From Candidatus Obscuribacteraceae bacterium (GTDB lineage Bacteria; Cyanobacteriota; Vampirovibrionia; Obscuribacterales; Obscuribacteraceae), in the NCBI GenBank assembly GCA_044229845.1, contig JBGASG010000006.1, positions 224,001 through 288,000 of the forward strand: DNA of 64,000 nt. The letters run 5' to 3'. Below the pieces are notes generated by a model, which was given only the letters and a program-made list of their open reading frames with translations, had not been told where the DNA came from and did no database searches. How positions within the stretch are numbered: the first letter of the stretch is position 1; each line of letters opens with the position of its first letter. Below, piece after piece: positions 28,820 to 48,990 of the stretch. Both the position numbers and the translations under genes were made by a program.

Positions 28820-31491
28820 ACTTCGGATTCAACCTTCATGGCGCTCGGCTGGACGGGCGATGGATCTGACGGCGCGGTAGCCGCAGGCGCTTGCAACTCG
28901 AGTGCATTGGGGACGACTGCTAATTGTATCTCGGAGAGCTCGGTCTGCGCGCACCAGAGCCGAAATTCGGCGATTTGCGCCAAACTACTTGATAATTGAC
29001 GAAACTCCGGAAGCTCTTCGGGCTTGCCCGCAGGCTGGTCCACCAGGTCAACAAAGAGCATGCCGTCCTCGGCAAACCAATCGATGACGTGGATCTTCTT
29101 CAAGATGGAGAGTGCCAACGCCACACTCATCTTATCCACCGAAAGCGCAGCAGCCAGACGATCAGGATCGGCCTGGCCTTCTTTATGATTGACCGCATAC
29201 TTCACCAGCGCATACAGCTTGCGCAACATGGTGGTGGCATCAGGCGCCTCCGACTGCAATGCGCCGATCAAGTACACATGCTGCGCGGCGCTCTTGCGCA
29301 CCAGAGCACGAAAGACTTGAAGCGACGGCGGATATTGCCAGAGCACCAGGTGGGTCTGGTCGGTGACATCGCAGCGGCCGACGAGAGTGTGCCCGGGCAG
29401 TTTCTCGCTGGTCTCAGCAAAGAGAGCAACTTTGTCGCCAAGCTTACGAACAGCTGCGTCCAGAAGACTGCGCGCATCAGAGTGCTCGCGCAAATCCTTC
29501 CAGGAAATCGGTCGGCTGGCGAAACGAGCATTTGCCTGCGCGGCACCGGCGGCTGCATCAGGCACCGCGGTTTCGCGCGCGCCATCAGCGGCCGCCGCCG
29601 GCACGACCGGCAAATCCATGGTATCGGAGAGTTTCGTCGATTGCGCGTTGGCAGCCAGAGTTTCAGCGCGCGCGAGATCCGCGGGAGCCACTTCCACCGC
29701 CATCCCCGGAGCCGCTGCCGGCGGTGTCATATCCATTTCGGCTTCCACTTCGACCACGTCACGCAAAGCAGCATCGCGCCAGTCACAAAGCACCAGCTGC
29801 AGTCGGTCGACACCATTGTATGTGTTGATCTCGGGGGAAAAGGCAATATCGACTTGATCGCCGATTTGCGGAATGCGCCCGCGCGAGTTCCACATTACAC
29901 ATTCGAATTCATCGGCACCGCCCGACACGGTGATGCGATGGTGCTTGCCTTCCTTGCCCAGAACACGGGTCGCGACGCATTCCAATCCTTCGCTGACGAA
30001 GACCGGCTTGCGATTACCCATCCCGAAGGGTGCCAGGCGAGACAAGCTGCGCGCCAGAGGCTGCGTCAGATCGCGCGGCTCCAAAATGCAATCAATTTCC
30101 AGCTGCGATTTGCGCGCTTGACCCTGCAAAAGACGCGTGCAGGTATCGACAACGGCGCGGCAGAATAATTCGGCTTTATCCAGTTCGACGGTGAATCCGG
30201 CCGCCGCTTTGTGGCCGCCCCACTTCTGCGCCAGTTGCTCGTTGAGCTTCAACGCCTGATGCAGATCGATGGACGGGACGCCGCGCGCCGATCCTTTGAT
30301 GACTTTCTCGCCTTCATCCATCTCGGCAATGAAAACAGGAACTGAGTATTTCTCGACCAGTCGCGCCGCCACAATGCCGACAACGCCGTGGTGCCAGCCC
30401 TCGCCGTAGATGGCAATGGCGCGATCTATAGATAGGTTGCAGGTCTGCTGAACTTTCTTGTCCGCCTCGAAGAAAACTTGCTCGCACAAATCCTGGCGGC
30501 GAGTGTTCTCCATTTCCAGCGAGCGCGCAATTTCCTGCGCACGAGTTTCGTCGCTGGTGGTCAAAAGCTCAACGGCAGTGGTGGCATCGGACAGACGGCC
30601 GGCTGCATTCAGGCGGGGCGCCAGTCCAAACCCGACCAGATCCGTTCCTTCCTTATGTCCAGCCAGCTCCAACAAGGCTTTGATGCCCGGTCGCTGCGAA
30701 TTGATCAGCTTCGGCATACCCACCTGGACGAGATAGCGATTCTCTCTCACCAGGGGCACCATGTCGGCGATCAAGCCCAAAGTGACCAGGTCGAGCAGAT
30801 CGTCGATCATCTCCGGCTTGCCGCTATCGATCAAGAGCGCCTCGGCAAGCTTGTAGGCAACGCCGACTCCGGAAAGATCAAAGAGCGGGTGGTCGTCGGA
30901 GAGATGCTTGGGATGCATGATTGCCACCGCCGGCGGCGCCATATCGGGCAGCGCGTGGTGATCTAATATGATCGTCTCCACACCCAGCGATTTGGCGAAA
31001 TTGATTTCGGCAAAATTGGAAATTCCGCAATCGCAAGTGATGATCAGCTTGCTGCGATGCTTGCTGGCCAGCACGCTGACTGCTTTGAGGTTCAGTCCGT
31101 AACCTTCGGACGCACGGTTAGGAATGTAGAAATCGACCCGCGCCCCCAGTTCACGCAAGACCGTCAGCATCACGCAGGTGGCGGTGATACCATCGACGTC
31201 GTAGTCGCCATACACGGTGATCTGCTCATTCTGCTCGATCGCCTGTTTGATGCGTGCTACCGCCCGCGGTGTGTCGGCGAAGGACAGCGGGCTGGAAGTC
31301 TGGCACTTGTCCGGTTGCAGATAAGCCTCGGCTTCGACTGCCGTCCGCACGCCGCGATTTAACAAGAGCCGAGCCAGCAGTGCCGAATTATCGGCTGCTG
31401 CAATCAGCTCAGCCGTCGGCTGTTCGTCAGTTGGCATCACCCAATGCCGGGACGGCAAGCCCCGACGCGAACTTTCCATAGCTATCGACAT
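28816..31491 (-). CDS. recJ: Single-stranded DNA exonuclease RecJ with C-terminal extension
   Basis: YGDYDVDG, TCDCG, LDHH, PRLNAAGR, GVVGIVA, GGH.AAAG, PFGMGN. Confidence 0.95.
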   Translation of the reverse strand: MSIAMESSRRGLPSRHWVMPTDEQPTAELIAAADNSALLARLLLNRGVRTAVEAEAYLQPDKCQTSSPLSFADTPRAVARIKQAIEQNEQITVYGDYDVDGITATCVMLTVLRELGARVDFYIPNRASEGYGLNLKAVSVLASKHRSKLIITCDCGISNFAEINFAKSLGVETIILDHHALPDMAPPAVAIMHPKHLSDDHPLFDLSGVGVAYKLAEALLIDSGKPEMIDDLLDLVTLGLIADMVPLVRENRYLVQVGMPKLINSQRPGIKALLELAGHKEGTDLVGFGLAPRLNAAGRLSDATTAVELLTTSDETRAQEIARSLEMENTRRQDLCEQVFFEADKKVQQTCNLSIDRAIAIYGEGWHHGVVGIVAARLVEKYSVPVFIAEMDEGEKVIKGSARGVPSIDLHQALKLNEQLAQKWGGHKAAAGFTVELDKAELFCRAVVDTCTRLLQGQARKSQLEIDCILEPRDLTQPLARSLSRLAPFGMGNRKPVFVSEGLECVATRVLGKEGKHHRITVSGGADEFECVMWNSRGRIPQIGDQVDIAFSPEINTYNGVDRLQLVLCDWRDAALRDVVEVEAEMDMTPPAAAPGMAVEVAPADLARAETLAANAQSTKLSDTMDLPVVPAAAADGARETAVPDAAAGAAQANARFASRPISWKDLREHSDARSLLDAAVRKLGDKVALFAETSEKLPGHTLVGRCDVTDQTHLVLWQYPPSLQVFRALVRKSAAQHVYLIGALQSEAPDATTMLRKLYALVKYAVNHKEGQADPDRLAAALSVDKMSVALALSILKKIHVIDWFAEDGMLFVDLVDQPAGKPEELPEFRQLSSSLAQIAEFRLWCAQTELSEIQLAVVPNALELQAPAATAPSDPSPVQPSAMKVESEV

Positions 31492-31558
31492 GCCTTCCCT
31501 CGCTGAAGTCGATACGCCGGACATATCCGATCAACAATCTGCGAATATATTTTTGGCG

Positions 31559-31574
31559 CCACCATATGTGGTGC
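31559..31574. promoter_or_regulatory. NrdR-box-like site upstream of recJ-apt
   Basis: CCACCATATGTGGTGC fits C.A.AT.T.G of the NrdR consensus. Confidence 0.5.
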
Positions 31575-31659
31575 CGTCCCGCGTGCCCAAAGCATACTCG
31601 ATCGCCCGGGACGACGCGGATTAAATCCAGGTTGGATCCGGCAACAGCGGACTTAGAGA

Positions 31660-31989
31660 TCAGTGGCGACGGGCCTTCTTGAGAGCGCTGGTATAAATCT
31701 CTTCAATACGCTCAGGGCGCGCATCATCAGGCCAGTTTTCCAGGTTGATCTCAATCACCGTCGTATAAGACGGACCGTGCGGCCAGGGCAGAGCCCAGCC
31801 CGCAAACCAGATCACCGGAAACAGCAGAACGTGAAATGTCACGGCAACACAAAAAGCTTCACCCAGGGGCACCTGTTCTTTGAACCATTCGGCACATCTG
31901 CGATATAACCGAGTCTTGAGAGGCTCGGATTTATAGGCGAACGCTTCCGGCACGTCAGGGTTAGGAGATGCTTGTTTTTTCCAGACCAC
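31660..31989 (-). CDS. Small single-TM protein
   Basis: GTG start with AGGAG RBS; TM segment with a TonB/TolA-like HVLL motif. Confidence 0.65.
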   Translation of the reverse strand: MVWKKQASPNPDVPEAFAYKSEPLKTRLYRRCAEWFKEQVPLGEAFCVAVTFHVLLFPVIWFAGWALPWPHGPSYTTVIEINLENWPDDARPERIEEIYTSALKKARRH

Positions 31990-32093
31990 GCGCTCCTGAT
32001 GCCCTCAGCGATGGTAGTATGTGGTCCATTCTGACATATCATAAGTACTCAGATATGGCTGAGCCGGCTATGAATTCCACTGCGGAGGCAGTT

Positions 32094-32846
32094 ATGCGCC
32101 TGAAGCAATCCGGAAAAAACCAGCGAATCATGCGCCTGCGCGCGCTGGCGCTGCTGCTTTTGCCGATTTGCGGGTTTACCCTGATTTTTTCCTGCGGTTC
32201 GCCCCCGGCATGCGCCCAGGAAGATATCTATGGTCCGTCTAATCTACTGAAGTCGATGAAGACCCCCTTCAACGCACCCAGCACAAACGACGGCAGCGAC
32301 TCCAATACCGGCGCCATCACTTTAAGTCGTTCTCATAGCCCGCTTCAACGCGGGCTGGCCAGTCGCCTCATTCAGTCGCGCCTCTACCTCCCAGGACGGA
32401 TGGTTCTCGGGAAGCCCGCCGAGTTCGTTGTCAAAGGGAGACCGGGACAATTCGTCGCACTTGCCATGGCCGACAAAAACACCGGCGCCAAGCCGGTTTT
32501 TGGTCACGACCTGCGCCTGGGCTCCGACAGAAAACTGGTGGCAGTGGGGCAGATCGGCGAGACGGGCGTGACATCGCTGATGGTTGAAACACCTGTGCAA
32601 GGCGACTTGATCGGCGAGCGCTGGTTTTTTGAAGCAGCATTGTGGACGCATCCGGATTTCAGTGATCTAGAACTGGCGCAGCCCGTGCCCGCCGATGCCA
32701 CCGCCGCTGCCGAAGTCGATAAAGCCAACGGCGTGCTCGTCGGACCGGACATCGAATATAAACGCGGCGTACGCATCGTCCCCGATGCCACCTTGCCCAT
32801 GCAACGCGCCAGCCGTGGTACCGCTCTGGATTCAGGGAGACCCTAA
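32094..32846 (+). CDS. Secreted hypothetical protein
   Basis: Signal-peptide-like N-terminus; GGAGG RBS. Confidence 0.7.
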   Translation: MRLKQSGKNQRIMRLRALALLLLPICGFTLIFSCGSPPACAQEDIYGPSNLLKSMKTPFNAPSTNDGSDSNTGAITLSRSHSPLQRGLASRLIQSRLYLPGRMVLGKPAEFVVKGRPGQFVALAMADKNTGAKPVFGHDLRLGSDRKLVAVGQIGETGVTSLMVETPVQGDLIGERWFFEAALWTHPDFSDLELAQPVPADATAAAEVDKANGVLVGPDIEYKRGVRIVPDATLPMQRASRGTALDSGRP

Positions 32847-32850
32847 GGCC

Positions 32851-34353
32851 GTGAAAGCAATTCTGGTGCCGCTGGACAATCGCCCGGTCACTTATTTGTT
32901 GCCGCGGTTGGTGGCCAACATAGCCGGCGTACACGCGACGCTTCCGCCGCGGCACCTGATGGGCTCACTGCAGCGTCCATCTAATGTCAACGCTCTCGGC
33001 GACTGGCTGGACAGTGCACTTAAAGACGAAAAACCCGACGCCCTGCTGGTGTGCCTGGACAGTTTGCTGTACGGCGGATTGATACCATCTCGCCGCACCG
33101 AAGACGCAGTCGCCGATGTTCAGAAACGCTGCGATGTTTTGATGCGCTGGAAGAAACAGAACCCGTCGCTCAAATCAGTCCTCGCGCAATCAAGCATCAT
33201 GCGCATCTCGGACAATTACGACAACACCGAAGAGAAAGAATATTGGAATCGCTTCGGGCGCGAGATATTTGGCTGGTCGGAGTTGCTGCACAAAGTGCAG
33301 CGCGGAGACAGCGTCGCTGCGGCAGCACTGAGCGTGGCTGAGTCGCGCGTGCCACAGGCAATTCGCGATGACTACATGAAGACGCGCATGCGCAACTTTC
33401 AAATCAACCGCCAGTTGGTCAGTGCCGTCAAGGCTGGAGCGCTGGATTTCCTCGCTCTGTCACAAGATGACTCCGGCGAATTCGGCTTGAATGTCGTGGA
33501 ACGAGACAAATTGGTGGCACAAGCCCAGTCCGAAGGGGTGACACCGAAAGTAATGGCATACGCGGGAGCCGACGAAGTATTGTTGACCTTGTTCTGTCGC
33601 TGGCTGGTTTCGCAAAGCAACAATGAACGGCCCGCAGCTCGTGTCAGTTTCTCACCTTCAATGGGCGAGAGCATCCCCAGTCGCTACGAAGGTCAAACGA
33701 TTGGCGAAAGCATCCGCAATCAGCTGCGCGCCGCTAACATCGAGGTGGTGGAGAGCGAACAAGGCTGCGATTTCACAGTAGTCGTCCACACTTCCGGAGA
33801 TCGCCAGGGCGATCACATCCTTCTCAATGGTCAACCGGACCTGCGCGATTTGAACACAAGAACATCCGTTGAAGAAACCATGAAGTTGCTGCGCGAATGC
33901 AACAAGCCTTTTGTGCTTTTGGACGTGGCGTACTCCAACGGCAGCGATCCGATTTTAGTCGATGCCCTCTTTGAGGAACCCGATCTGCTCGATAAGATGT
34001 GGGGTTACGCCGGCTGGAACACCTCCGGCAACACGTTCGGCTCTGGACTGGCCATTGGCGTCGCGCGCTGGTTCGCCACCCGCAAAAATGTTCCACCTGA
34101 GCAAGCCGATCGCGCCCTCAAACAATGCCTGTTCGTCCGCTTCGCCGACGACTGGGCTTACCAGACACAGATTCGCAAACAACTAAACGGCCCGGTGCAA
34201 CCCAACGATCTCGCACCACTGATGACACCGCTTTTCAGCACCATCGGCAAAGCGCTCAAGTATCAACCGGAGTTTGTCAAGCTCGGTCTGCCCTGGCAGC
34301 GCACGTTCGAAGTCGAAATCGATGTCGAACAGCCCGTCGGCATTGCCACGTAG
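32851..34353 (+). CDS. DUF4127 family protein
   Basis: PLDNRP, YGGLIPSR, QDD, GADE, DVAYSNG, YAGWNTSGN, DDWAYQ. Confidence 0.85.
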   Translation: MKAILVPLDNRPVTYLLPRLVANIAGVHATLPPRHLMGSLQRPSNVNALGDWLDSALKDEKPDALLVCLDSLLYGGLIPSRRTEDAVADVQKRCDVLMRWKKQNPSLKSVLAQSSIMRISDNYDNTEEKEYWNRFGREIFGWSELLHKVQRGDSVAAAALSVAESRVPQAIRDDYMKTRMRNFQINRQLVSAVKAGALDFLALSQDDSGEFGLNVVERDKLVAQAQSEGVTPKVMAYAGADEVLLTLFCRWLVSQSNNERPAARVSFSPSMGESIPSRYEGQTIGESIRNQLRAANIEVVESEQGCDFTVVVHTSGDRQGDHILLNGQPDLRDLNTRTSVEETMKLLRECNKPFVLLDVAYSNGSDPILVDALFEEPDLLDKMWGYAGWNTSGNTFGSGLAIGVARWFATRKNVPPEQADRALKQCLFVRFADDWAYQTQIRKQLNGPVQPNDLAPLMTPLFSTIGKALKYQPEFVKLGLPWQRTFEVEIDVEQPVGIAT

Positions 34354-34367
34354 TTCAGTTCCAAGTA

Positions 34368-34958
34368 TCAGTCCACCTCGGCGTCGGATAACTGTTTGTC
34401 GGCGCATCGGACTGACTGCGCATCAGCCTGGATAGCGAGTTCGCTACCTGAGTCAATTGACTCACCGATGAGTGAATCGACAATGGTTTCTTCTCCTCTG
34501 CCTGAATCCTTCGATTCTCTTCTTCGCGTCAATCGCTCCACCACTGGGTAAAATGCTGGTCCGAAAAGACAGAGCAAGCAAGCAACGCTTGTGGCGACGA
34601 CGATTGACCAATGACCATCATGGCGAAACATTAAACGGTCAAGAAGTTGGATCACGCAGCAGGCGAGCGCAATCCCTGCACCAAACGAAAATACAGCACT
34701 GATGGACGGCAATGAGTTCGACAAAAGCGTTTCAAACAGCGTAGGTCTAGACGATGGACCAGCCTTGTTGACAAATTTTGGAAAAAGAAACTCCTTGTAG
34801 AATGCCACGAGCGACATAAATCCGCCGAGCGCGAAAATTGCTACCCACTCCCGCCGCTCCAGGTACTCTAAAAGGCGGTAGTTCCGAAGACAGCCGATGA
34901 AGAGGATCACACCGCTTCCGAGAACGAGGGCACATGCTACTTTGTCGCTCCAACGCAT
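34368..34958 (-). CDS. Hypothetical ~4-TM membrane protein (candidate immunity/cargo cassette)
   Basis: ATG overlaps the TGA of the duplicated NLDLLKKLGFVD* fragment; hydrophobic segments. Confidence 0.7.
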   Translation of the reverse strand: MRWSDKVACALVLGSGVILFIGCLRNYRLLEYLERREWVAIFALGGFMSLVAFYKEFLFPKFVNKAGPSSRPTLFETLLSNSLPSISAVFSFGAGIALACCVIQLLDRLMFRHDGHWSIVVATSVACLLCLFGPAFYPVVERLTRRRESKDSGRGEETIVDSLIGESIDSGSELAIQADAQSVRCADKQLSDAEVD

Positions 34959-35000
34959 CAGTCCACAAACCCCAGTTTTTTGAGCAAGTCAAGATTGCTC
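34956..35000 (-). repeat. Direct repeat copy 2 of the 3' end of the JAB-like gene
   Basis: Encodes SNLDLLKKLGFVD*; 41/45 nt identical to 36316-36360. Confidence 0.92.
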
Positions 35001-36308
35001 TATGACATGTTTGCTCTTTCTGCATTTGAACTCATTCGATCTCTGTTTCTCCCTTGCCGAGGCTAGCAAGGTCCTGATCTCCTCTGTTGGTGGAGCTGAA
35101 TTGCAAATCTCAATGACTCTCCGAAACTCGGCTGCCGCCTCACAATACTTCGACTGACAGGTGAGTGAATCCCCTAGCATGCTATCAGCGCGCGCCATCA
35201 GCAATAAGCGGTCAGGCAAGTAGTCCCAGACAGGGCGTTTCAACACACTGAGTTCTTCACCAAAGGAGGTCTCTGCGCCTCGGAAATTGGCTCGGCGATA
35301 TTGAATCTGCCCGACACCATCCAGGCTGCGGACAATTAGGATTTGACATTCAGGATACACATCCATTACGCGCGCCGCAGCGAGCGCCTCGGCATACGTC
35401 CGTTGAGCCTCGGGCAAGTTGTTCCGCAGTGAATAACAGTGCGCAAGCTTCAGCTTAAGCCTAACAAAATAAGTGGGGGAGATCTGCAGATAAGTGGGGG
35501 AGATCTGCGCATTCGTGCGCAACGCAACTTCCAACAAGTGAGTAGCGAACGCTGTATCGCCGCATCGAAGAGCTGTATCGGACTCTAGCTCCAGCATACC
35601 CACCTTGTCTTCAACAGTGTGCATCGACGCAGTAACATCTTCAAAGGCTCGCTCGGCTGGAGCCTTATTTCCAGCACGTAAGCTGATCTCCCCCAACTTA
35701 AACAATGCTGCAGACCTGGTGAACCGATCGGCGGCCGACAAGAGTGGCTCCAGCACAACGCGGGCGTGCTCAAGTTGCTTCTTACTGATGTACGCGTCAG
35801 CGATTTCGATACCGCTCGGGCCTAAGTCTGCTGGCGAGATCCTTCTTAACAAAACAAGCGTCTTACAGATGGAATCTCGCACCGCGAGGCTGGAATTGCC
35901 GCCCATAATCAGTTTGTGCGCCGATGCTATGCTCTCCGCGATTGAATCTCGTGCAAGCTTTTCCTGGTTCCGAATTGCATATATTTGACCTAAACCGGTA
36001 GTGCTGCGCATGCGGCTCTCAAGATCTCCGCTTTTCGCAGCAAGACTGCTTGACTCTTTGTAGTACTGAAGGGCTTCATCAAGAGCACCACGGTTTAGAG
36101 AGCTATCTGCAAGTTGCAGTCCCAATCTAGTTTTGCTGGCCGAGTCGATCGCGATTTGGTACTGCAACCTTGTGGGTAATATAAGCCAGTCAGTCGGGTA
36201 AACAGCCAACAATACCAGACAAGCTAGCGAACCCACAGCTGCAATAACTTTGCACTTGGTCGCTCTTTCAGGAAGAGCCAGCTCAATGGGACGCATGTAT
36301 TTTGTCAC
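34989..36308 (-). CDS. TPR protein with N-terminal TM anchor
   Basis: Repeated TPR helices (LGQIYA, LGEISL, LAHCYS, VGQIQY, LGDSLT); internal 21-bp duplication; start uncertain. Confidence 0.75.
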   Translation of the reverse strand: MTKYMRPIELALPERATKCKVIAAVGSLACLVLLAVYPTDWLILPTRLQYQIAIDSASKTRLGLQLADSSLNRGALDEALQYYKESSSLAAKSGDLESRMRSTTGLGQIYAIRNQEKLARDSIAESIASAHKLIMGGNSSLAVRDSICKTLVLLRRISPADLGPSGIEIADAYISKKQLEHARVVLEPLLSAADRFTRSAALFKLGEISLRAGNKAPAERAFEDVTASMHTVEDKVGMLELESDTALRCGDTAFATHLLEVALRTNAQISPTYLQISPTYFVRLKLKLAHCYSLRNNLPEAQRTYAEALAAARVMDVYPECQILIVRSLDGVGQIQYRRANFRGAETSFGEELSVLKRPVWDYLPDRLLLMARADSMLGDSLTCQSKYCEAAAEFRRVIEICNSAPPTEEIRTLLASAREKQRSNEFKCRKSKHVIEQS

Positions 36309-36315
36309 CCCGCAT

Positions 36316-36360
36316 CATCAGTCCACAAAGCCCAATTTTTTGAGCAGGTCAAGATTGTTC
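36316..36360 (-). repeat. Direct repeat copy 1 (3' end of JAB-like ORF)
   Basis: Encodes NNLDLLKKLGFVD*. Confidence 0.92.
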
Positions 36361-36704
36361 CCATCCGGTATGAATCTGCCCCTAGACGTAAACTGTCCTA
36401 GTTGAACTATTCGCCCTGCCTTGTTTGCTTCAACGTAGTCTGCATCCTTTGCATGGTAATCAACTTTGTAGAGCATCAGGCTATTGTAGGTCGCACCGGC
36501 CGGCGGACTGCCCGGAATTTCGTCTCCTTTGTGGGCAGACGGCGTCAGCAACACCTGCACAAACTGCTTACCCTGGTTTGAAAACGCCGAGCTATGCATA
36601 AAGCCTTCGTAGGTCCGACCAAGTGTCAAATCGTCGGGCGAGAAATTCCAGTAGGCCTTGTCTTTCGACAGCGGATGTGAGTGCCCGTGCGCTAAGATGG
36701 TCAT
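36318..36704 (-). CDS. JAB/MPN (DUF4329-like) metal-binding C-terminal part of a toxin-like gene; separate ORF or frameshifted 3' half
   Basis: HGHSHP...NFSPDD motif; ATG overlaps the upstream TGA. Confidence 0.6.
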   Translation of the reverse strand: MTILAHGHSHPLSKDKAYWNFSPDDLTLGRTYEGFMHSSAFSNQGKQFVQVLLTPSAHKGDEIPGSPPAGATYNSLMLYKVDYHAKDADYVEANKAGRIVQLGQFTSRGRFIPDGNNLDLLKKLGFVD

Positions 36705-37798
36705 AGGCTGTCCCCGAAAGCGATTTTCCAATTCTCGATACCAAGCGGTTCTTGAAGCTCGGAGTTCCCGTCTTTAACGCCTGGATTGAACCACACTCGA
36801 GACATGTAGATTTTGTCGCCTACTTGGGCAAATGCAAAATTGAATTCGCCCTGATTCCGCCGTGGATCGTTGATCAGAGAAGAGTATGTTTCCAGAATTG
36901 CCTTGGGAACACTTTTTACCTCGTGAATTTCGCCAGAGACCTCCCACTTATCGATGTAGTCGCGCAGTTGCTTGTCTCCTTTTGCCTGGTGTTTAATCAA
37001 ATCCGACACAGGCGAATTCTTTGCTTTTTCCCAAGTTCGCCCACCGGACGACGGAGCTAAATTGCTGCGAGAGTCGTTTCCGGCGTCGGCAATGACGGAG
37101 TCAGTGTCATAGGTTGTTGTTGCAGGAGCTGCTTGTTCGCCCTGAGCCTTTGCTTCCGGCGTATAGCCGGCATCGGACATCGTGCCGCCACCGGCTCCGA
37201 ATGCAATCAATCTCGCCTCCGGCGATAAATGATGCCGCCGGAGCGCATCTTCTTCAATATTCGACGTGTAGCGGTTCGCTGAAGGATGAGGCACGGGCTC
37301 CGGATCGTTTGGAGTTAGTACGCCTAGTGATTTCTCATTCGTAGGTCCGCCGCCAGGTCCGCCGCCAATACCCGAATCTCCGCCAAGTTTGTTGAGCGCG
37401 CCGGCTGCCCATTGCCTAGCTTTGTTGAGTATGTAATCAATCGAAAAGGCTCCTTGGAGTCGCTCTACTTCCTCGGCGCTAGCATCACTGTCAAAGACTT
37501 TTTTGAGCCCCTGCATGAAGGACGGGCGTGCCACGTATCGTTCGCCTTTGGATGTGTGCTCTTTGCCTGCCTCGGCATCCTCCAGCACAAACTCACTAAC
37601 AGCCCTGCTGCCTTTCGAGACGGACGACAAAATCCTATCCAACTGCCCCGAGAAGGATGTGAAAACCGGCTCGTAGGGAGCCGCCTGCACTTCATCAGTT
37701 ACCGATTCTGCGGCCAGTTTGCCCGACGTAAAGGGTTTGCTCTCCCCCTCCGCGCCACCCTCAGCCTTTCTTTCGCCTCGCTTCGAATTTTCCAACAC
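36701..37798 (-). CDS. Hypothetical effector/toxin-like protein, N-terminal part
   Basis: Low-complexity N-terminus, Gly-rich linker; ends with a GEFNFAF beta-strand region resembling a JAB N-terminal half. Confidence 0.65.
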   Translation of the reverse strand: MLENSKRGERKAEGGAEGESKPFTSGKLAAESVTDEVQAAPYEPVFTSFSGQLDRILSSVSKGSRAVSEFVLEDAEAGKEHTSKGERYVARPSFMQGLKKVFDSDASAEEVERLQGAFSIDYILNKARQWAAGALNKLGGDSGIGGGPGGGPTNEKSLGVLTPNDPEPVPHPSANRYTSNIEEDALRRHHLSPEARLIAFGAGGGTMSDAGYTPEAKAQGEQAAPATTTYDTDSVIADAGNDSRSNLAPSSGGRTWEKAKNSPVSDLIKHQAKGDKQLRDYIDKWEVSGEIHEVKSVPKAILETYSSLINDPRRNQGEFNFAFAQVGDKIYMSRVWFNPGVKDGNSELQEPLGIENWKIAFGDSL

Positions 37799-38052
37799 TC
37801 TCGCGACTCCGCACCATCATAGCTATATACCCAGAGCTATTAGACTCTTCCTCGCCCCGTCGAGCACGAAGTGGAGACAGCGCCTGCCACCTCCTCGGTC
37901 GGCATCTGCCGTCAGTAGCACCAAAGGTGATGGCATAGGTATTTCAGAGTTGATCGAACACGCTGGAAGGTCGGCATTGCCACGTAGTTTGCACACGCTC
38001 TGTACTATTCTGATAGCACCCCTAACCAGAATCTGCAGCCGAGGCAGTGATC

Positions 38053-38928
38053 ATGGCAGAAACTCTTGCCGATGGCGGGCCCGCGCATGCTCACCATGCG
38101 AACCTGCCCGACACCAAAATTTTCGGCGAAGCGCCTGAAGCACCGGAAGCGCCGGGAACCCTGGAATACGCCGGCAACCTGAGCTACGCCGCTGCGGTCG
38201 GCGCCGACATGGCGGGCTTCGACAGAGTCGCCATGTCGGGACCAGAAACAGCATCGAAATACCTTACTAACGTCTCGATGTTCGAGTCCAGCGACTACAA
38301 AAGCGCTTACCGAGCCAGCAATAGAGCCACTCCCGAACGCGAAGCCGAAGTGCTCACTAAACACTTCGATGCCATCGCCAAACTGTCCGGCGACTCTAAC
38401 TTCATCTCCAGGGAAGCCATAGATCAGTTCGTGCATGCCAACTCAGCTCGTTTGCCCCGCGGCGAGGTATCCGCGCTCATGAGCGCTGCGCTCAACGCAG
38501 AACGCATCCAGCGCTCCAATAATGATGGTTGGTGGCATGATTCGAATGCCGACGGCAGCAAAATTTCGCGCGCCGACATCCAGAAGTATCCGCAGCAAGA
38601 GCGACGACTGATCGATCAAGAACGCGGCATGCAATACATGGCTGACGTATTCAAAAATCTGCCGGGCGATCCGTCCTCTCATCAGATGAGTCTCGCCGAC
38701 ATGCGCAACTTCATCGAGCAGCGTCGCTTAGCCAACGCGCCCGCGGGAGAGCTTGCACTTGCTGAAGCCGCGCTGAAAACCATGACGGAACACGCGAACA
38801 AGTCCGGCGGCGATCCGGAAGCTTTCCGGCTAACGATCAAAAACTTCAATAGCGTCTTCGAACCGCGAGTGGAGATTGACGGTCAGACCTACACTTCGCA
38901 ACAGCTCCACCGCCGCCCTCGACGCTAG
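38053..38928 (+). CDS. Hypothetical protein with EF-hand-like loop-helix repeats
   Basis: GDSNFISREAI, ADGSKISRADI, SHQMSLADM; GAGG RBS. Confidence 0.65.
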   Translation: MAETLADGGPAHAHHANLPDTKIFGEAPEAPEAPGTLEYAGNLSYAAAVGADMAGFDRVAMSGPETASKYLTNVSMFESSDYKSAYRASNRATPEREAEVLTKHFDAIAKLSGDSNFISREAIDQFVHANSARLPRGEVSALMSAALNAERIQRSNNDGWWHDSNADGSKISRADIQKYPQQERRLIDQERGMQYMADVFKNLPGDPSSHQMSLADMRNFIEQRRLANAPAGELALAEAALKTMTEHANKSGGDPEAFRLTIKNFNSVFEPRVEIDGQTYTSQQLHRRPRR

Positions 38929-38995
38929 GGACGTAACGCAGCCTTGAAGAGGCTGACAAGAGATGCTAGACTTTTGAGTGTTCTGAGGTCTCGCC

Positions 38996-39196
38996 ATGGC
39001 TACCAAACCGCGCAAAACCCGAGCTGGAGCCCGCAGCAGTGCGTCGACGGTTGCCTGTCGATACGTCGTTCCCTCGGTGTCAACAACATCAGCATTTGCT
39101 TTCTTTGCCAACAACGAGGAAGCGAGAAAAAAGGCGCTGCTAGTGTTTGGCAAAAGCACTAAAGCGCTTCAAAAACCGCGCAAGAAAAGGGCTTGA
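38996..39196 (+). CDS. Small basic protein
   Basis: GAGG RBS; stop overlaps the next start (TTGA). Confidence 0.5.
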   Translation: MATKPRKTRAGARSSASTVACRYVVPSVSTTSAFAFFANNEEARKKALLVFGKSTKALQKPRKKRA

Positions 39197-39924
39197 ACGA
39201 TCTTCTCGACACTTTGGAAGCGATGCTCTCGCGCTTCAAGGCTGGTGGCTCGATCGACGTGATTGAGTCGGGACGACAAATCACTCATTCGCAACCCCAA
39301 AGAGCCACACTCTCGATTCCAAAGGCGAACCGGGCCTCCGAGATTAGACATGCTTGGGAGAAAAATAGAAGGAGTATTCCAAGGACTGGAATTGTGTTTC
39401 CGGATGGATCGGTAATGACCATTTTGTTTGAGTGGCAAAAGCCACCAATACCACGAGCATTGCAGCCAGTAGCATCGCATATTTCCTATTTCGATTCCCA
39501 CGGCGAACTCTCTGCGTTTGTCAATCGCTACTCGTACTGCTTTTTTCCCAATTCTGAAAGTGCAGAGGCGATAGGATATTTCCGCTATGACTTTCACTCC
39601 GATGCGATGGGTGAAGGAGATTTAGGAGAGCATGCTTACTTCCACCTGCATCATCGAAAAGTGGAACGTGGCTTTAGACTTGCCACTGGACCAGTTACAG
39701 ACTTCGACAAAGTTGTCTCCGGGATCGAAGGACACCTTGCTCCCATTCAGAGAAGGAATCGTCTGAGGAAGTCTTTTGAGCAGGGAAAATTCAATGAACT
39801 GCTGTTTGATTTGACAGTCGACGGAATAAAGAGACTTCACGGCGAAATACTGCCCCGAAAAGCAGACGTGAGCAACTTCAAACACAAGGAAAAGTACGAA
39901 GAGTTTCTGAAGACTTACGAGTGA
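39193..39924 (+). CDS. Hypothetical protein with RYD...H.H motif (DUF2290/TumE-like)
   Basis: FRYDFH...EHAYFHLH...FRLATGPV; AT-richer codon usage by eye. Confidence 0.6.
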   Translation: MNDLLDTLEAMLSRFKAGGSIDVIESGRQITHSQPQRATLSIPKANRASEIRHAWEKNRRSIPRTGIVFPDGSVMTILFEWQKPPIPRALQPVASHISYFDSHGELSAFVNRYSYCFFPNSESAEAIGYFRYDFHSDAMGEGDLGEHAYFHLHHRKVERGFRLATGPVTDFDKVVSGIEGHLAPIQRRNRLRKSFEQGKFNELLFDLTVDGIKRLHGEILPRKADVSNFKHKEKYEEFLKTYE

Positions 39925-40784
39925 TCGTCTAGTCCAATCATCACGAGAGTGCCGAAGTGATCGGACGGATAGACGCCGTCAACCGCCTGGTTGATCAGGC
40001 GGTGCGATTTCGCAGACAAACCCTTTGAGAGAAACACTGCGTCGATGCAGACCGTCGGCTTGCCACCTACGTGATACGTGGGCGAAAGCGTTGCCGCAGT
40101 TGCCGGCTTCGTGAGCAACGCTTCCGCATTGTGGAACCCGGCATTCTCAAAGCATTTCCACGCGTCGCTACCAAGCTCGCAATTGAAATCACCAACCAGA
40201 ATGCGATTTCTTCCCGGACATATCGATTCGATCTGCTTAACCACCAATTCGGCCGACTTCTTGCGCGCCAGCGGATTGAGCGGGAAGTGAGTGTTGAAGA
40301 CGCAAAACTGCGTGCCACCACCTTTAGCCCGTAACATCGCCCACGTACAAATACGCTTGTACATGAGGTCCCAGGTGTTCTTGCTGCTGTCCGGCGTGTC
40401 GCTCAGCCAGAACGTTCCACTCTTCACCAGTTCCAACTTGGTGCGGTCATAGAAGATCGGACAGAACTCGCCTTTCTCCTTTCCGTCATCACGACCGACT
40501 CCAATAAACGAGTGGTTGGGCAGTAACGGCGCGACAAAATTCAACTGCTCCTTCGTCGGTTCCTGCAGGCAGATGACATCGCTCTCTTGCTTGGACAGCA
40601 GTGCTTTCAAAGCCGCTTTGCGTTTCGTCCAGCCGTTCGGAAAAACTCCCGCGTCCGATCCGACCTGGATGTTCCAGGTGAGCACTTTCAGGAAACTGTT
40701 AGAAGCTTCGCTCGCTCCGGCGTTCGTCATCATCAGCAGCAGGAAGACGAAAGCAAGCGCACGCAGGGCGTTTCGTGCAAGCAC
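39915..40784 (-). CDS. Secreted endonuclease/exonuclease/phosphatase family protein
   Basis: TWNI, CLQE, GRDDG, TFWLS, NTHF, GDFN, IDAVF, PSDH. Confidence 0.9.
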   Translation of the reverse strand: MLARNALRALAFVFLLLMMTNAGASEASNSFLKVLTWNIQVGSDAGVFPNGWTKRKAALKALLSKQESDVICLQEPTKEQLNFVAPLLPNHSFIGVGRDDGKEKGEFCPIFYDRTKLELVKSGTFWLSDTPDSSKNTWDLMYKRICTWAMLRAKGGGTQFCVFNTHFPLNPLARKKSAELVVKQIESICPGRNRILVGDFNCELGSDAWKCFENAGFHNAEALLTKPATAATLSPTYHVGGKPTVCIDAVFLSKGLSAKSHRLINQAVDGVYPSDHFGTLVMIGLDDHS

Positions 40785-40791
40785 AATCCAG

Positions 40792-41307
40792 TTAGTACTC
40801 TGGCGCGTTGTCGTGCGAGAGCACGAAGTGCGGACCGCCGCTCGACTGCTCATCGGTCAACATCAGTCCGTCGTGCGCACCGCCGATGATGGCATAGTCT
40901 TTGCCCCCGTCCACGCAGGTGTATTCGATGACGCCGGGAGCCAATCCTTCACGCGAGCCGTGGCGCAAGGACTCGGCATCCTTTCTTGTGCCGTTCACCG
41001 GCAAAATTAGCCCTTGCTTGGGATCGGTGGAGAATACATTGCTGTAGCCGGCATAATCAGGGGACTTGAAACTATCATCGATTTTTTCGGGATACTTGCC
41101 GTTGTGTGCCTTGCCGTACGCCTCGACGGCACGCTGAAACTGCAGCATGTTGCCCTTAATCAAATTGTCCCGCGGTTCCAGCTGCACAGGTTCCGCGTTG
41201 TTCTTGAACAGTTTCCTGGCGTAGTTATCCGTGCCGCAACCGGTCAAAACCGTGACGCAGGCTACTGCCGCCACCAATATCCGAATCGACGCAGAGAATA
41301 ACTTCAA
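40792..41307 (-). CDS. Lipoprotein with pseudopilin (GspG)-like domain
   Basis: Lipobox LTGC; NMLQFQRAVEAY...GKYP. Confidence 0.6.
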   Translation of the reverse strand: MKLFSASIRILVAAVACVTVLTGCGTDNYARKLFKNNAEPVQLEPRDNLIKGNMLQFQRAVEAYGKAHNGKYPEKIDDSFKSPDYAGYSNVFSTDPKQGLILPVNGTRKDAESLRHGSREGLAPGVIEYTCVDGGKDYAIIGGAHDGLMLTDEQSSGGPHFVLSHDNAPEY

Positions 41308-41408
41308 GTGACATTCCTCCGGGCAAGACGTTCGCCAATACTACCATTGCCGTCGACACTAAACCGCCCAACCTGGCTATAATGCAGCCAGGGGACTATC
41401 GACCTTTA

Positions 41409-42548
41409 ATGAAAATTCGCTCTCGCCTCAGAGTATTCCTTGCCATCGTCTGCGCCAGCATGACCCTGCTGGTCTCGATGGCTGCGCCGCCGGCGCCTGG
41501 AGCCGTGGAGACATGGGAAAAGCTCGACAAACGCCTCAAGGGACAGATATTTCAGCTGAACATCGGCATCAAAATCAAGGTAAAGGGAGAGTACGCCCAG
41601 CTCACGGACGTGTCGCCCAAGTACAAATTTGCGGTTTTTGGCACCACCCCCGACGATAAAGGCTTCCGGGTGGTAGGTTTTGGGTCGTCATTCCCAATTC
41701 GCACCGCCAAAGGCGACAAGACCTATTTCTTGACGAACCGTCACGTCGTGGATTCCGGCGAAGGCATTGTCCAGGAAAGCCAGCGTTTCTTTGCAGCAAT
41801 GAGGTTAAATGCTCAGCAGACTGCCGGTTTCACGTCCGCAGAGCAGCGATACAAAGACATGATGGCAATCGTTAACATGTCCCAGAAGAAGGATATGAAT
41901 TTTGCCGAGCGAGCTATTTACAACAGCACGGTCGATGGTATCTGGGATACGTACGAAAACAACCTGTCCACCAAAGCCGACCCGCAGCGCAAGCAGTTTC
42001 AAAAATACCTGGCCATGGCCGGCGTCGAGTCGGAGACTGGTTATTTCCTGCACTCACCAGGTCCGGTCACGCAGCCTGCACTGCAGGCTCAGCTATACAA
42101 AGTGGCTCGCACTGATGCCGAGCCCGATCTCGCCGTCTTGACCGTAGGCGACTCGGCGCTCCCCAAGCTGGACTTAGATACAGTGACGCCTTCAGAAGGA
42201 CAGGAGATTCAGGTGATCGGCTATCCACTGGCATCCGATCAAATCGACGCAGACTCAGGCACTTATTACGCTCCCACATTTACAACGGGACGGGTGTCGC
42301 GCGTGGCACCGCGCTTGCTGCACGTCGATGCACCAGTCACCGTCGGCAACAGCGGCGGTCCCGTCGTCAGCCTACGGGGCAAAGTGGTCGGCGTAGTGGC
42401 GCGACGCGCCATGCTACCGCATACGATGAATGGTCAAGTTGTGCAAGCTGAGCTGCCGAACTTCGGCGGCGCCATCACCGTGCAGTCCAACAGTGATGTA
42501 ATGAGCCGAATTTTCTTTGCTGCAGCGGGCGGTTGCCAGTTGTACTAG
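41409..42548 (+). CDS. Secreted trypsin-like serine protease (no PDZ) with large insert
   Basis: TNRHVV, DLAVL, GNSGGP catalytic triad. Confidence 0.88.
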   Translation: MKIRSRLRVFLAIVCASMTLLVSMAAPPAPGAVETWEKLDKRLKGQIFQLNIGIKIKVKGEYAQLTDVSPKYKFAVFGTTPDDKGFRVVGFGSSFPIRTAKGDKTYFLTNRHVVDSGEGIVQESQRFFAAMRLNAQQTAGFTSAEQRYKDMMAIVNMSQKKDMNFAERAIYNSTVDGIWDTYENNLSTKADPQRKQFQKYLAMAGVESETGYFLHSPGPVTQPALQAQLYKVARTDAEPDLAVLTVGDSALPKLDLDTVTPSEGQEIQVIGYPLASDQIDADSGTYYAPTFTTGRVSRVAPRLLHVDAPVTVGNSGGPVVSLRGKVVGVVARRAMLPHTMNGQVVQAELPNFGGAITVQSNSDVMSRIFFAAAGGCQLY

Positions 42549-42588
42549 AATTTCATCCACATAGTTTGTGCCTGAATTCGAGGGGTCC

Positions 42589-44709
42589 ATGCAAGTAACG
42601 CATAAGTTCTTGACGCTGATTACGGTGTCATTCGCAATCGCACTCGCTGGTTGCACGACGACGACACACACAACCACGACGACAACCACAACAACCACCA
42701 GCAGCGGTGACACCGCATCCGGTGGCGTGCTTCCCGAGTTCAAGGCACCATATCCGGGGAATTACACGACCGCCATGGTCGGTGATGCTGAAGTGCACGA
42801 AGGCAGGTTCCCGGTCGGCAAATTTGGCGGCACGCTGGTGCGTCCGATTGTCGGCTCAGATCCCAAGACCTTCAACTACTGGCAGGCAGACGACTCTTCG
42901 TCCCGTATGCTCGCCGGTTATATGTTCTCGGGACTGGTTGTCGACGATCCTTACAACGGCGATATCACACCCGATCTGGCTGAAGAAGTTAAGGTGATGC
43001 CGGACAACGTCACCTACATCACCAAGCTGCGCAAGGGGCTCAAGTGGTCGGACGGTAAACCGATCACCTCCGCCGACGTTGCCTATACATGGAACACGAT
43101 CATCGCCGGTGGCTATGGAAACAGCTCGCTGCGCGACGTCACCCAGATCGAAGGGAAATCACCGACCGTCACGGTCATCGATGAGCTGACAAATAAATTC
43201 GTGACACCAAAACCATTCGCTCCGTTCCAGAGATTGCTTGGCATTCCGATTGCGCCCAAACACGTTTTCGAACCGATTACCAGCAAGCCGGACGGGCATC
43301 AACGGTTCGGCGAGAAGTGGGCTCAAACTACCGATCCCGCAAAATTGGCTTCCTTTGTCACGTCGGGTCCGTTCGTCATCTCGCGCTTCGTCCCATCGCA
43401 ACGGGTGGAACTGGCGCGCACTGAAAACTATACCTTGTTCAACAAAGACGGACGCCGCTTGCCCTACCTGGACAAACAGCTCTTCGTTTTCGTTCCTGAA
43501 CCGAACACATTGCAGCTGAAGTTCCGCAATAAAGAGATCGACGTAACGACTGTTCGCGCCCGCGATTTGCAGACGCTTCTGTCTGAGCGCGAGAAAGGGG
43601 ATTTCCAGATCTATCGCCTCGGCCCTACCTCGGGTTCTACGTTCATCATGTTCAATATGAATCAGCGAAAGAACCCCAAAGGGGAAGCTTACGTCGATCC
43701 GATCAAATCAAAATGGTTCAACGACAAGAACTTCCGGCAAGCTGTAAATCATGCCGTCAATCGCGATCTGATCATCGCCAACTATTTCAAAGGCATCGCT
43801 TATCCGGCTTTCACATCTGAGTCCCCCACCAGCCCCTGGTTCGATTCCGCATTGCAGCCATTCAAGCCGGATCTGAAGATGTCCAGCGACCTGCTGACTC
43901 AATCCGGTTTTACAAAGAAAGGCGATGTTCTCTACGACAAGGCCGGAAACAAAGTCGAATTTGACCTAGTGTACGCAGCAGCAAGTCCTTTCTATGAGGC
44001 TTGCGTGCAGCAGTTGAAGGATGACCTCGGTAAGCTGGGGATCAAAGTCAACTCGCAAGCCATGGAATTCAATGCTCTGATCGACCGGATGGATGTTTCG
44101 AAGAAGTGGGAATGCTCGATATTCTCGCTGACCGGCGATCCACTCGATCCGCATGGCGGCACCAACGTCTGGCGGACGGACGGTAGATTGCACCTGTTCG
44201 ACCTGCGGTTCGAGCCGGGACAAACAACCACTAAGGTCACCGATGCCCGTCCCTGGGAAAAGGAAATCGACACTATCTATACGAAGGGCGCGCAGATCTT
44301 CGACAAGGCTGAGCGCAAGAAGGTATATGACCGCTACCAACAAATCGTCTATGACGAAGTACCAATGATCTACCTTGTTACACCAACTGCATTGCTCGGA
44401 GCGAGAAACACCGTCGGCAATTTCGCGCCGACGCCGCTTTCCTCATCGGTTGGTGACGGCTTGCACAACATCGACGAGATCTACAAGACAGACGCCACAG
44501 GTACTGGTCCAGAGCCGGAGAAGTTGAGCCCGAAGACTGCCGCGCCGGCGCCCGACACAGCGACCCCGACGTCGACGACTACCAGTTCAACAACAACGAC
44601 AACCGGGACAACCCCAGCCATTCCCATGACGGGTCCCGGTGCCACCACAACTGATGCAGCGACATCACCGGTCACACCAGCCAAGACGAAACCGGAACGC
44701 AAACCGTGA
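42589..44709 (+). CDS. Peptide/nickel ABC transporter substrate-binding lipoprotein (family 5), Thr-rich termini
   Basis: Lipobox LAGC, DPKTFN, LRKGLKWSDG, GPF, FRQAV. Confidence 0.92.
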   Translation: MQVTHKFLTLITVSFAIALAGCTTTTHTTTTTTTTTTSSGDTASGGVLPEFKAPYPGNYTTAMVGDAEVHEGRFPVGKFGGTLVRPIVGSDPKTFNYWQADDSSSRMLAGYMFSGLVVDDPYNGDITPDLAEEVKVMPDNVTYITKLRKGLKWSDGKPITSADVAYTWNTIIAGGYGNSSLRDVTQIEGKSPTVTVIDELTNKFVTPKPFAPFQRLLGIPIAPKHVFEPITSKPDGHQRFGEKWAQTTDPAKLASFVTSGPFVISRFVPSQRVELARTENYTLFNKDGRRLPYLDKQLFVFVPEPNTLQLKFRNKEIDVTTVRARDLQTLLSEREKGDFQIYRLGPTSGSTFIMFNMNQRKNPKGEAYVDPIKSKWFNDKNFRQAVNHAVNRDLIIANYFKGIAYPAFTSESPTSPWFDSALQPFKPDLKMSSDLLTQSGFTKKGDVLYDKAGNKVEFDLVYAAASPFYEACVQQLKDDLGKLGIKVNSQAMEFNALIDRMDVSKKWECSIFSLTGDPLDPHGGTNVWRTDGRLHLFDLRFEPGQTTTKVTDARPWEKEIDTIYTKGAQIFDKAERKKVYDRYQQIVYDEVPMIYLVTPTALLGARNTVGNFAPTPLSSSVGDGLHNIDEIYKTDATGTGPEPEKLSPKTAAPAPDTATPTSTTTSSTTTTTGTTPAIPMTGPGATTTDAATSPVTPAKTKPERKP

Positions 44710-46640: not shown

Positions 46641-46641
46641 C

Positions 46642-47610
46642 ATGTCCATACCGATCTACATCCTCAAGCGCTTTCTGCAATCGATTCCATTGCTGATCAT
46701 CATCTCGATCATGAGTTTCACGATGCTGATGATGGCGCCAATCGATCCGCTAGCGCAATTGAAAGCAAACCCTGCTATCTCGCAGGCGGCGATCAAAGCG
46801 GAGGAGGAACGGCTTGGATTGAACAAACCCCCGATCGAGCGCTATGGCCGTTGGCTGGTTGCTCTGCTGCAAGGAAACCCGGGCACGGCCGTATCCGGAG
46901 CACCGGTGGCCAGTCTGTTGATGGATCGCGCCGGCAACACATTGCTTTTGAGCAGTCTCTCGATTTTCTTCACCTGGCTATTTGCAATTCCAATGGGCAT
47001 TTACGCCGCTGTGCACCGCCAGAAGTTTCTCGACAAACTGTTCAACATGATCAGCGCAATCGGTATGTCGATGCCGCCGTTTTTCTTCGCTCTCCTTTTG
47101 CTGATGGGAGCGTTGGCAACCGGATGGTTTCCGATTGGCGGCTTGACCAGCCCCAATCACTTCGAGATGGACTTCTGGCATCAAAGACTCGACATCGCGC
47201 ACCATCTCGTGATTCCAACCACCGTATTGACCTTCATCGGGCTGGCCGGTATTCAGCGCCAGATGCGCGGTAATCTGCTCGATGTTTTGCGCGCCGAGTA
47301 TGTCCGTACAGCTCGGGCCAAAGGCTTGCCAGAAAATCGTGTCCTTTACGCACACGCATTGAGAAATGCGATCAACCCACTCATTACATTCCTCGGATTT
47401 GAATTCGCGGCTCTGCTCAGCGGCGCAGCACTGACTGAAACGGTGCTCGCGTATCCAGGGCTGGGTCGATTGACACTGGAAGGCGTGCTAACCAAAGACA
47501 TGAACCTGGTAATGGCCTCTCTCATGCTGGGCGCCGTCATGCTGATCGCCGGCAACTTGATTGCAGACATTCTTCTCAAACTGGTCGACCCCCGAATCAC
47601 CCTGGAGTAA
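46642..47610 (+). CDS. Peptide ABC transporter permease (OppB/DppB type)
   Basis: EYVRTARAKGL, HALRNA, DPRI. Confidence 0.93.
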   Translation: MSIPIYILKRFLQSIPLLIIISIMSFTMLMMAPIDPLAQLKANPAISQAAIKAEEERLGLNKPPIERYGRWLVALLQGNPGTAVSGAPVASLLMDRAGNTLLLSSLSIFFTWLFAIPMGIYAAVHRQKFLDKLFNMISAIGMSMPPFFFALLLLMGALATGWFPIGGLTSPNHFEMDFWHQRLDIAHHLVIPTTVLTFIGLAGIQRQMRGNLLDVLRAEYVRTARAKGLPENRVLYAHALRNAINPLITFLGFEFAALLSGAALTETVLAYPGLGRLTLEGVLTKDMNLVMASLMLGAVMLIAGNLIADILLKLVDPRITLE

Positions 47611-47623
47611 CAGGCAGACACCT

Positions 47624-48766: not shown

Positions 48767-48801
48767 CCAGCGCGCAACGCGCACAAAGGATGCAACGCCA
48801 A

Positions 48802-48990
48802 ATGGAACCAGCCCAGATTATCGAAATCGCCCTGCTCGCCTCTGTTTGCATCGGCGCCTGCGCGATCAGCTGGAATTCTCTGCGCAACTGGCGCGGCAGT
48901 CGTTTCCTATGCGATGACTGCCGGTTCAACGATCCAGAGCTATGCAAGAAACGCGAACGCGGGCGCGCACTGATCTGCACGGCGTATGAA
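48802..48990 (+). pseudogene. Small TM + Cys4 (CDDC..C..C) protein lacking its own nearby stop; end approximate
   Basis: First ~63 aa look like a real membrane-anchored Cys-rich protein; the ORF then continues as an antisense shadow to 50016. Confidence 0.4.

Follow-up and report, generated by a model that had tools for sequence, protein, structure and literature searches.

A duplicated JAB gene tail in a Candidatus Obscuribacteraceae genome, read as the probable scar of a displaced toxin-like gene

The closest described parallel to the locus considered here comes from Vibrio cholerae, in the displacement arrays of its type VI secretion system (T6SS). In these arrays, a new effector module replaces an old effector, and the partner gene of the old effector is retained downstream (PMC5361080). 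The 3′ end of the old effector is found shifted back, homology-facilitated illegitimate recombination has been proposed to account for the arrays, and no integrase is reported in the part of the source drawn on here (PMC5361080). A comparable arrangement is found in a 64,000-nt stretch (hereafter the window, whose coordinates are used throughout) of contig JBGASG010000006.1, from the Candidatus Obscuribacteraceae assembly GCA_044229845.1. The genome is that of a sludge bacterium (G000; 5.16 Mb, 88% complete). On its minus strand, the window carries a gene with a C-terminal JAB domain (JAB1), followed by a kinase-less transmembrane (TM)-TPR gene and a gene for a 196-aa membrane protein (the 4-TM gene), with the last codons of the JAB gene recurring between the latter two. 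The most likely reading of the repeat is an evolutionary scar of a kind already known, namely a putative toxin-gene remnant and a retained partner in a small island, belonging to an undescribed polymorphic family. On balance, it is probably what was left when one toxin gene replaced a relative and the partner was kept, and not a working cassette-swapping machine.

As in the Vibrio arrays (PMC5361080), a 3′ remnant (R2) is followed here by a retained, coupled gene. Unlike in those arrays, no T6SS marker was found, the gene in the middle derives from a receptor and lacks the kinase part, intermediate forms were not observed, and the displaced tail is nearly identical to that of the new gene, so that it reads as a direct repeat. 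A second group of parallels is provided by the orphan modules of Rhs and contact-dependent inhibition (CDI) systems, in which a whole toxin tip is present and the sequence held in common lies at its 5′ border. At the present locus, in contrast, only 13 terminal codons are left, and these could not supply a new toxin. What the two have in common, as far as the portions of the published accounts used here go, is the presence of toxin remnants and immunity genes downstream of a main toxin (PMC3150448, PMC3967940). In the staphylococcal esaG/tsaI arrays, partner genes are likewise strung behind a polymorphic toxin and reshaped by homologous recombination, although those arrays consist of paralogous immunity repeats, whereas the two downstream genes here are mutually unrelated (PMC9484751, in part).

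The tail repeat had been described in the original prediction, which was made from the letters of the window alone, and direct comparison bears it out. The last 45 nt of JAB1 (R1, 36316-36360) recur at an offset of 1360 (R2, 34956-35000) with 4/45 nt different, three of these changes being synonymous in the frames that end in NNLDLLKKLGFVD and SNLDLLKKLGFVD, each followed by a stop. A bias of this kind has P = 0.033 for at least three of four changes and 0.01 for three of three. Because R2 has changed in the manner of coding sequence, it appears to be the end of a second JAB gene, a presumed homolog now lost (JAB2), which lends support to the earlier proposal that the copy derives from a diverged coding relative. 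The weak similarity that had been noted past the stop is also present, with the likeness extending over 68 nt at 82% (36294-36360 versus 34933-35000; E 2e-10 against the genome). Over this length, R1 includes the JAB gene 3′ end and a decayed start, MMRGDKIHASH and then a stop, which resembles the start of the 4-TM gene. R2 comprises an untranslated JAB 3′ remnant (13 codons and the stop) plus the 4-TM gene start, with an in-frame TAG immediately before it. The tail itself, LxxLGF[VIA][DEQ], is the conserved terminus of one JAB subfamily.

The 4-TM gene (34368-34958, minus strand) is joined to R2 by a TGATG overlap and ends in EVD and a stop, as predicted. Three hydrophobic segments of its product lie over threshold and a fourth was seen by eye, and only close alleles of the protein were found. 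Coupling of a JAB gene via TGATG to a 4-TM gene also occurs at two related loci (L056 and L082; such loci carry L-numbers here). Because this coupling is native there, a JAB2-4TM pair is taken as the probable ancestral state, with the 4-TM gene as the coupled partner, and putatively the immunity gene, of the displaced JAB2; the decayed MMRGDKI start behind R1 would similarly be a trace of JAB1's own partner. The family architecture alone suggests both the toxicity of JAB and the immunity or partner role of the 4-TM protein. Compared with other partners, the latter shows 16-30% identity in forced alignment, which is weak, and homology is not claimed. A complex prediction for the JAB domain with the 4-TM protein scored 0.00, that is, gave no answer and is evidence neither way. 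As a separate observation, L082 lies in a genome of another genus (G072), where the JAB-4TM pair and its flank are nearly identical to those of L056, reflecting either transfer or bin contamination.

The middle gene (34989-36308, minus strand; Pfam TPR) encodes 435-439 aa and has its stop inside R2. It aligns at 37% identity over 401 aa to the C-terminal end of a kinase-TM-TPR paralog on contig C19 of G000, and by its sequence it corresponds to a Ser/Thr kinase-TM-TPR gene of which only the C-terminal half is present. It had been predicted to be an immunity-like partner, an assignment that this resemblance does not favor, as the gene is not a typical immunity gene. Its alleles share 84-100% identity. 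An in-frame 21-bp tandem duplication at 35469-35510 is missing from some of them, and one protein allele (P0056) ends in KHVK and a stop instead of continuing into R2. The latter end fits either a native stop at the TAG of 35000-35002 with R2 right behind it, or a strain that lacks R2.

These genes belong to a larger unit, the borders of which the original prediction overlooked. An exact 20-bp direct repeat, with its left copy at 34336-34355 and its right copy at 37970-37989, ~170 bp upstream of JAB1, encloses 3.63 kb. The 14-nt core of this repeat has only two occurrences in the genome, and the repeat is present in a congener (G001) as well; a metagenome scan for it gave no match. The left copy coincides with the final codons and stop of a DUF4127 host gene (32695-34353, plus strand; PF13552, E 1e-119), which is present in 35/41 genomes. 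In 18 other genomes, the 1.5 kb next to DUF4127 contained none of the genes that lie to the right of the unit here. The unit would appear to have been inserted where the DUF4127 gene ends. The region had been judged AT-richer than its flanks by eye, and this holds, though mildly: the GC content of 34368-36731 is 0.515 versus 0.551 for the window, and only 2/308 2.4-kb segments are as low. GC at third codon positions (GC3) is 0.54-0.59 in this region as against 0.66-0.68 in four neighboring genes, with a fifth neighbor (39193-39924) at 0.49.

In the history proposed for this lower-GC unit between the 20-bp direct repeats, JAB2 would once have preceded the 4-TM gene as a coupled pair, until JAB1, together with the kinase-less TM-TPR gene, took its place. 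Two routes could lead there. By the first, an incoming allele would be anchored on the conserved 5′ module of the JAB gene and joined illegitimately at the TPR stop. By the second, a deletion would have occurred in a tandem JAB1..kinase-TM-TPR-JAB2-4TM locus; the gene order that this requires is seen at L057, where a kinase-TM-TPR gene lies immediately upstream of, and on the same strand as, a JAB gene. The two routes yield an identical product and are indistinguishable here. Deletions that keep the tail are seen in kin. For example, compared with contig C15 of G000, the JAB gene at L058 of G001 is without its catalytic part yet keeps its last ~17 codons and its partner, and in an allele from run sample X14, 623 bp of the JAB domain are exchanged for 109 bp and the tail is kept. 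The last 13 codons of JAB2 would have survived, plausibly as the translation start context of the 4-TM gene, and the partner would have been kept with them. A third copy of the tail (R3, described below) would probably be an older scar of the same type. The unit would by now be largely fixed and spreading between strains through ordinary homologous recombination, with JAB1 repeatedly inactivated.

Several observations weigh against this scar reading. An empty DUF4127 site was not seen in the genomes, runs or scans examined, and the intermediate JAB2-4TM pair on its own was not found in G001, in four runs, or in genome or metagenome scans. The junctions are clustered, none being more than ~45 nt from a JAB-type stop, and a tail copy is found at, or adjoining, the end of each downstream gene; random deletion would predict a less tidy picture. 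L055, too, lies between repeats, in its case ~40 bp that match the 3′ end of the upstream gene. The TM-TPR gene is a maintained gene and not debris, because its 431-439-aa frame stays open across alleles that are 84% identical. A nuclease acting in the cytoplasm would not usually have membrane proteins as partners, and some of the partners lie on the opposite strand. Lastly, the VipB, VirB4-type and FlhA-type families of export systems were not found in G000 (88% complete).

Part of this evidence would suit one-off insertions by single crossover, in which DNA circles bearing a JAB tail are integrated by RecA-type or microhomology crossover without a dedicated recombinase or ongoing shuffling. 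Such events could cover the TM-TPR gene, at an earlier time the 4-TM gene, and also the entire unit beside DUF4127, leaving direct repeats of 45-68, 10 and 20 bp, respectively. The three nested or adjacent segments that each lie between direct repeats, the similar bracket at L055 and the completeness of both downstream genes to their ends all agree with this explanation. It would, however, require donor circles in which the tail was already joined to the TPR gene, and 10 bp is short for RecA. In addition, brackets occur in 3/17 loci only, one of them a plain tandem paralog, and the bracket score of the window is equalled by 39/1500 random genome regions. Single-crossover insertion is considered unlikely.

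The original prediction had gone further, proposing that partner genes are stacked or swapped by recombination at the JAB stop, around a 10-bp core. This core, GTGGACTGAT, does occur at the three places claimed for it, against a shuffle mean of 0.08 (0/100 shuffles reach three copies). Two copies lie within R1 and R2, and the third spans the VD and stop of the 4-TM gene (R3, 34360-34376, minus strand), where a weak likeness to the post-stop bases of R2 is also found. Whether the third copy might be due to chance had been raised as a doubt, and the answer is mixed. The word itself is not rare, with 11 copies in 5.16 Mb and ~10 calculated for a random 10-mer; its placement at a gene stop and the extended alignment nevertheless favor a real copy. 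R3 aligns with R2 over 18 columns at a score of 24, equalled by 52/5892 background windows, and with R1 at a score of 20, equalled by 570/5892. Among 3784 genome open reading frames (ORFs) of at least 150 aa, GTGGACTGAT is the terminus of the 4-TM gene alone, and GTGGACTGA that of a single further ORF. R3 is rated as probably a genuine, weakly related third copy because the core forms the stop of the next gene and the alignment to R2 runs slightly past it. None of R1-R3 coincides with the 25 longest of 246 inverted repeats.

An active array would resemble better known systems in which genes lie between short repeated sites. One related type of poly-immunity array is rAID. Integron and Xer-associated poly-immunity arrays share this layout with the present locus, according to the parts of the sources covered here (PMC5361080, 10.64898/2026.07.13.738213). 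Unlike them, the locus has no linked recombinase and no observed variable content, and its sites are coding remnants. For partner genes to be added or swapped site-specifically at the core, a recombinase encoded at a distance would be needed. The position of all three core copies where genes end, the 16 matches to tyrosine recombinases in other parts of the genome and the P0056 end that does not run into R2 may be counted in favor. On the other hand, the differences between R1 and R2 track the protein code and not a DNA site, the gene order is constant in G001 and in 4/4 runs, and no joints that skip a segment were among those listed. A search for the 45-nt tail at 17 related loci found downstream recurrence in one, the window itself. 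As the prediction had stated, no recombinase is encoded nearby: the window holds 0/16 of the PF00589 and 0/2 of the PF00239 matches (PF07508 and transposases being outside this search), and the nearest recombinase on the contig lies ~170 kb away. With neither a linked PF00589 or PF00239 recombinase in the window nor reuse of the site beyond 1/17 loci, the locus does not resemble an integron on these two counts. The stacking proposal is left unsupported, and a working array is regarded as very improbable.

The run comparison was based on contigs from four runs out of 24, one from each of four studies; assembled contigs drop rare variants, and it is within that limit that none of the joints listed in 4/4 runs skips 1360, 590 or 3634 bp. 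Read depth over the unit shows no drop in the four runs, except for uneven cover in X14. In the divergent alleles of X14 (JAB 3′ part ~90%, TM-TPR 5′ part 86%), contigs end at R1, which fits an unchanged order. The agreement of gene order with G001 is a weak test, because only three differences from the window exist over 34310-37000. Only 2/104 family genomes hold the unit. A scan of genomes for it found two loci, one of which (L101) shares the differences of G001 from the window, so it is not independent. This L101 is a 3.7-kb contig in a Bdellovibrionota bin, 98.7% identical to the window locus and probably misbinned.

Alleles of the window locus differ by 13-16% in parts (P0057; X14 records 28 and 29), a divergence sufficient to supply the differences between R1 and R2. 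Across 29000-49000, identity to G001 (L021), taken per 500 bp, varies between 72% and 100%, which suggests recent homologous exchange or mixed bins, and the alleles X13 and P0057 are mosaic. Homologous exchange is proposed on the strength of this patchiness and mosaicism together.

The JAB gene itself is split by a one-base frameshift near 36736, which the original prediction also overlooked. The N-terminal piece (36701-37798, minus strand; no Pfam family) comprises a conserved ~115-aa family module, a low-complexity linker and the first half of the JAB domain, and the C-terminal piece (36318-36731, minus strand) has the HSH..S..D metal motif, cut off from the catalytic Glu. In the window allele, the Glu and the HxH are hence in different ORFs. 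At the same locus, G001 has a single 488-aa frame, compared with which one base is missing from the window near 36736. As to assembly error, it is ruled out, as contigs of 4/4 runs match the window at the site, three of the runs not being flagged as a possible source; the 128-aa JAB piece was found on 24 contigs. A second frameshift allele is represented by P0046/P0049, so at least two distinct frameshift alleles exist. Judged from its sequence, the putative toxin gene is broken in this genome. Its repeated inactivation would be expected of a toxin whose partner has gone or no longer matches it, or could reflect nothing more than disuse. In the linker, a 12-bp in-frame tandem duplication (37343-37354) is missing from some alleles.

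The JAB/MPN identity given in the earlier prediction is well founded. Residues E44, H99, H101, S113 and D116 of the metal motif are invariant in 7/7 aligned rows, and in a 28-row alignment E, H101, S and D are invariant, with H99 at ≥90%. The predicted structure of the intact G001 allele (pLDDT 89.8) has an MPN fold. Compared with 48161 chains, its top 16 matches are all of the MPN/RadC type, although the best Z of 7.4 (rmsd 3.8, 139 aligned) is below 8 and weak singly; the best matches of the tip are deubiquitinase-type JAMMs. MPN proteins also lead the Foldseek results, none at E <= 0.001. Pfam assigns no family to the window protein. In the seven aligned JAB members, DUF4329 (PF14220) was matched in two (best 3e-05), Prok-JAB in one and, weakly, Toxin-JAB1 in one. 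The Atlas neighbors of JAB are DUF4329 and Toxin-JAB1 clusters, with feature matches of 0.91-0.92.

Described toxins of the Tox-JAB-2/DUF4329 and Tox-JAB-1 types end in a JAB domain bearing the residues E, H[ST]H, S and D and are proposed to be nuclease-like, in the passages of the source that treat them (PMC3482391). The present protein shares this domain and these residues (PMC3482391). It may be a toxin, either nuclease- or peptidase-like. Unlike those toxins, it has an unannotated N-terminal module and no RHS or known secretion domain by Pfam or NCBIfam, and its downstream genes encode TM-TPR and multi-TM proteins instead of Imm-NTF2-2 or Imm65. Because it has neither the carrier nor the immunity partner of Tox-JAB-2/DUF4329, the locus is not assigned to that family.

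JAB1 is one member of an unannotated family of Obscuribacterales proteins whose N-termini are conserved and whose C-termini vary. Its ~115-aa N-terminal module has eight matches in G000, 13 in G001, and occurs in 29/104 family genomes, mostly with weak scores outside the genus; it corresponds to no Pfam or NCBIfam family and has no Atlas match at 0.9. The C-termini differ, and protein lengths range from ~240 to 2300 aa. Such an architecture lends support to the description of the gene as polymorphic-toxin-like. The JAB tip was found in 8/104 genomes and 38 cluster representatives. Pfam found nothing on 9/9 paralogs and neighbors, and other tips (L023:7970-9148, L055:6323-7837, L064:4645-5568 and L061:4546-9396) have what we take, by eye, to be His/Cys peptidase-like or kinase-like motifs, again with no Pfam family. 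The next gene has at least two predicted TM segments in 21/24 callable family loci, many of them orthologs (in 6/30 loci the next ORF was absent or cut), and about half of the downstream partner genes are convergent on the opposite strand. If toxic, the family would constitute a polymorphic toxin system in a poorly studied sister lineage of cyanobacteria that is common in sludge. The family, with its JAB and other tips, membrane partners and neighboring receptor kinases, is more useful than the repeat itself. No paper on such a family was found in title-level searches, which covered little of the subscription literature.

Kinase-TM-TPR genes lie beside 5/6 JAB loci in G000 and G001, which are paralogs and not independent. 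These neighbors could point to a different function, that of a signaling or host-interaction module. In such a module JAB, as a peptidase or an enzyme akin to deubiquitinases, would act together with a membrane protein and a kinase-TM-TPR receptor of the Hanks type, and the window would hold a decaying duplicate. The structural matches to deubiquitinase-type JAMMs, the lack of any T6SS, type IV or type III secretion system marker found, and the frequent convergence of partners would be in keeping with this function. Proximity to kinases is partly expected, however, given ~117 kinase-domain matches. Moreover, conflict loci typically show what is seen in this family: N-termini that are conserved beside C-termini that vary, presence in some strains only, pairs of genes in tandem, and inactivation that has happened more than once. 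The Atlas neighbors, as mentioned, are DUF4329 and Toxin-JAB1 clusters. Taken as a whole, a signaling module is improbable, and since it concerns function, it is compatible with the repeat being a scar. A maintained kinase-less TM-TPR protein beside an effector would be an unusual decoy-type partner. By a more speculative extension, which we hold to be quite improbable, an undescribed polymorphic effector family of Obscuribacterales, with an unknown mode of export, would be sensed by Hanks-type kinase-TM-TPR receptors, and kinase-less receptor decoys and 4-TM proteins, both serving as immunity, would be captured serially by recombination at the effector stop. A defense-system reading was set aside, as PADLOC gave only weak TPR and AbiEi matches.

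Some related loci merit description in their own right. At L022 (G000 C19, 291465-295619), an intact JAB paralog has an extended tail that overlaps a convergent TM gene, and the divergent kinase-TM-TPR gene upstream is the nearest relative of the TPR gene of the window. The ~117 Ser/Thr kinase-domain matches of G000 include clusters on C8 and C13. L023 (G000 C15, 150999-157749) and L058 (G001) hold tandem pairs of a family gene and a TM partner, three units versus two, and share conserved ~490-bp 5′ and ~260-bp 3′ flanks. At L055 (5925-8543), a family gene and a convergent 4-TM gene lie between ~40-bp repeats (90%) of the upstream gene's 3′ end. Of the loci seen in G001 only, L055, L056 and L061 are unmatched in G000, the L057 site holds other genes there, and L060 matches at one flank; no insertion boundaries were mapped at these five loci between G001 and G000.

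Further scans added little. Rfam gave 0 matches, promoter and terminator scans gave no signal above shuffle level, a viral scan for the tail found no match, and none of 117 pattern matches from a metagenome scan for the JAB domain was confirmed, although the metagenome and viral data scanned may have been without close records. In RNA runs, only 0.07-0.15 of words were present. Relatives of the locus proteins carry the label Candidatus Obscuribacterales. To the right of the unit, two unannotated plus-strand genes occur at 38047-38928 and 39193-39924, the second of which, with its GC3 of 0.49, may be acquired.

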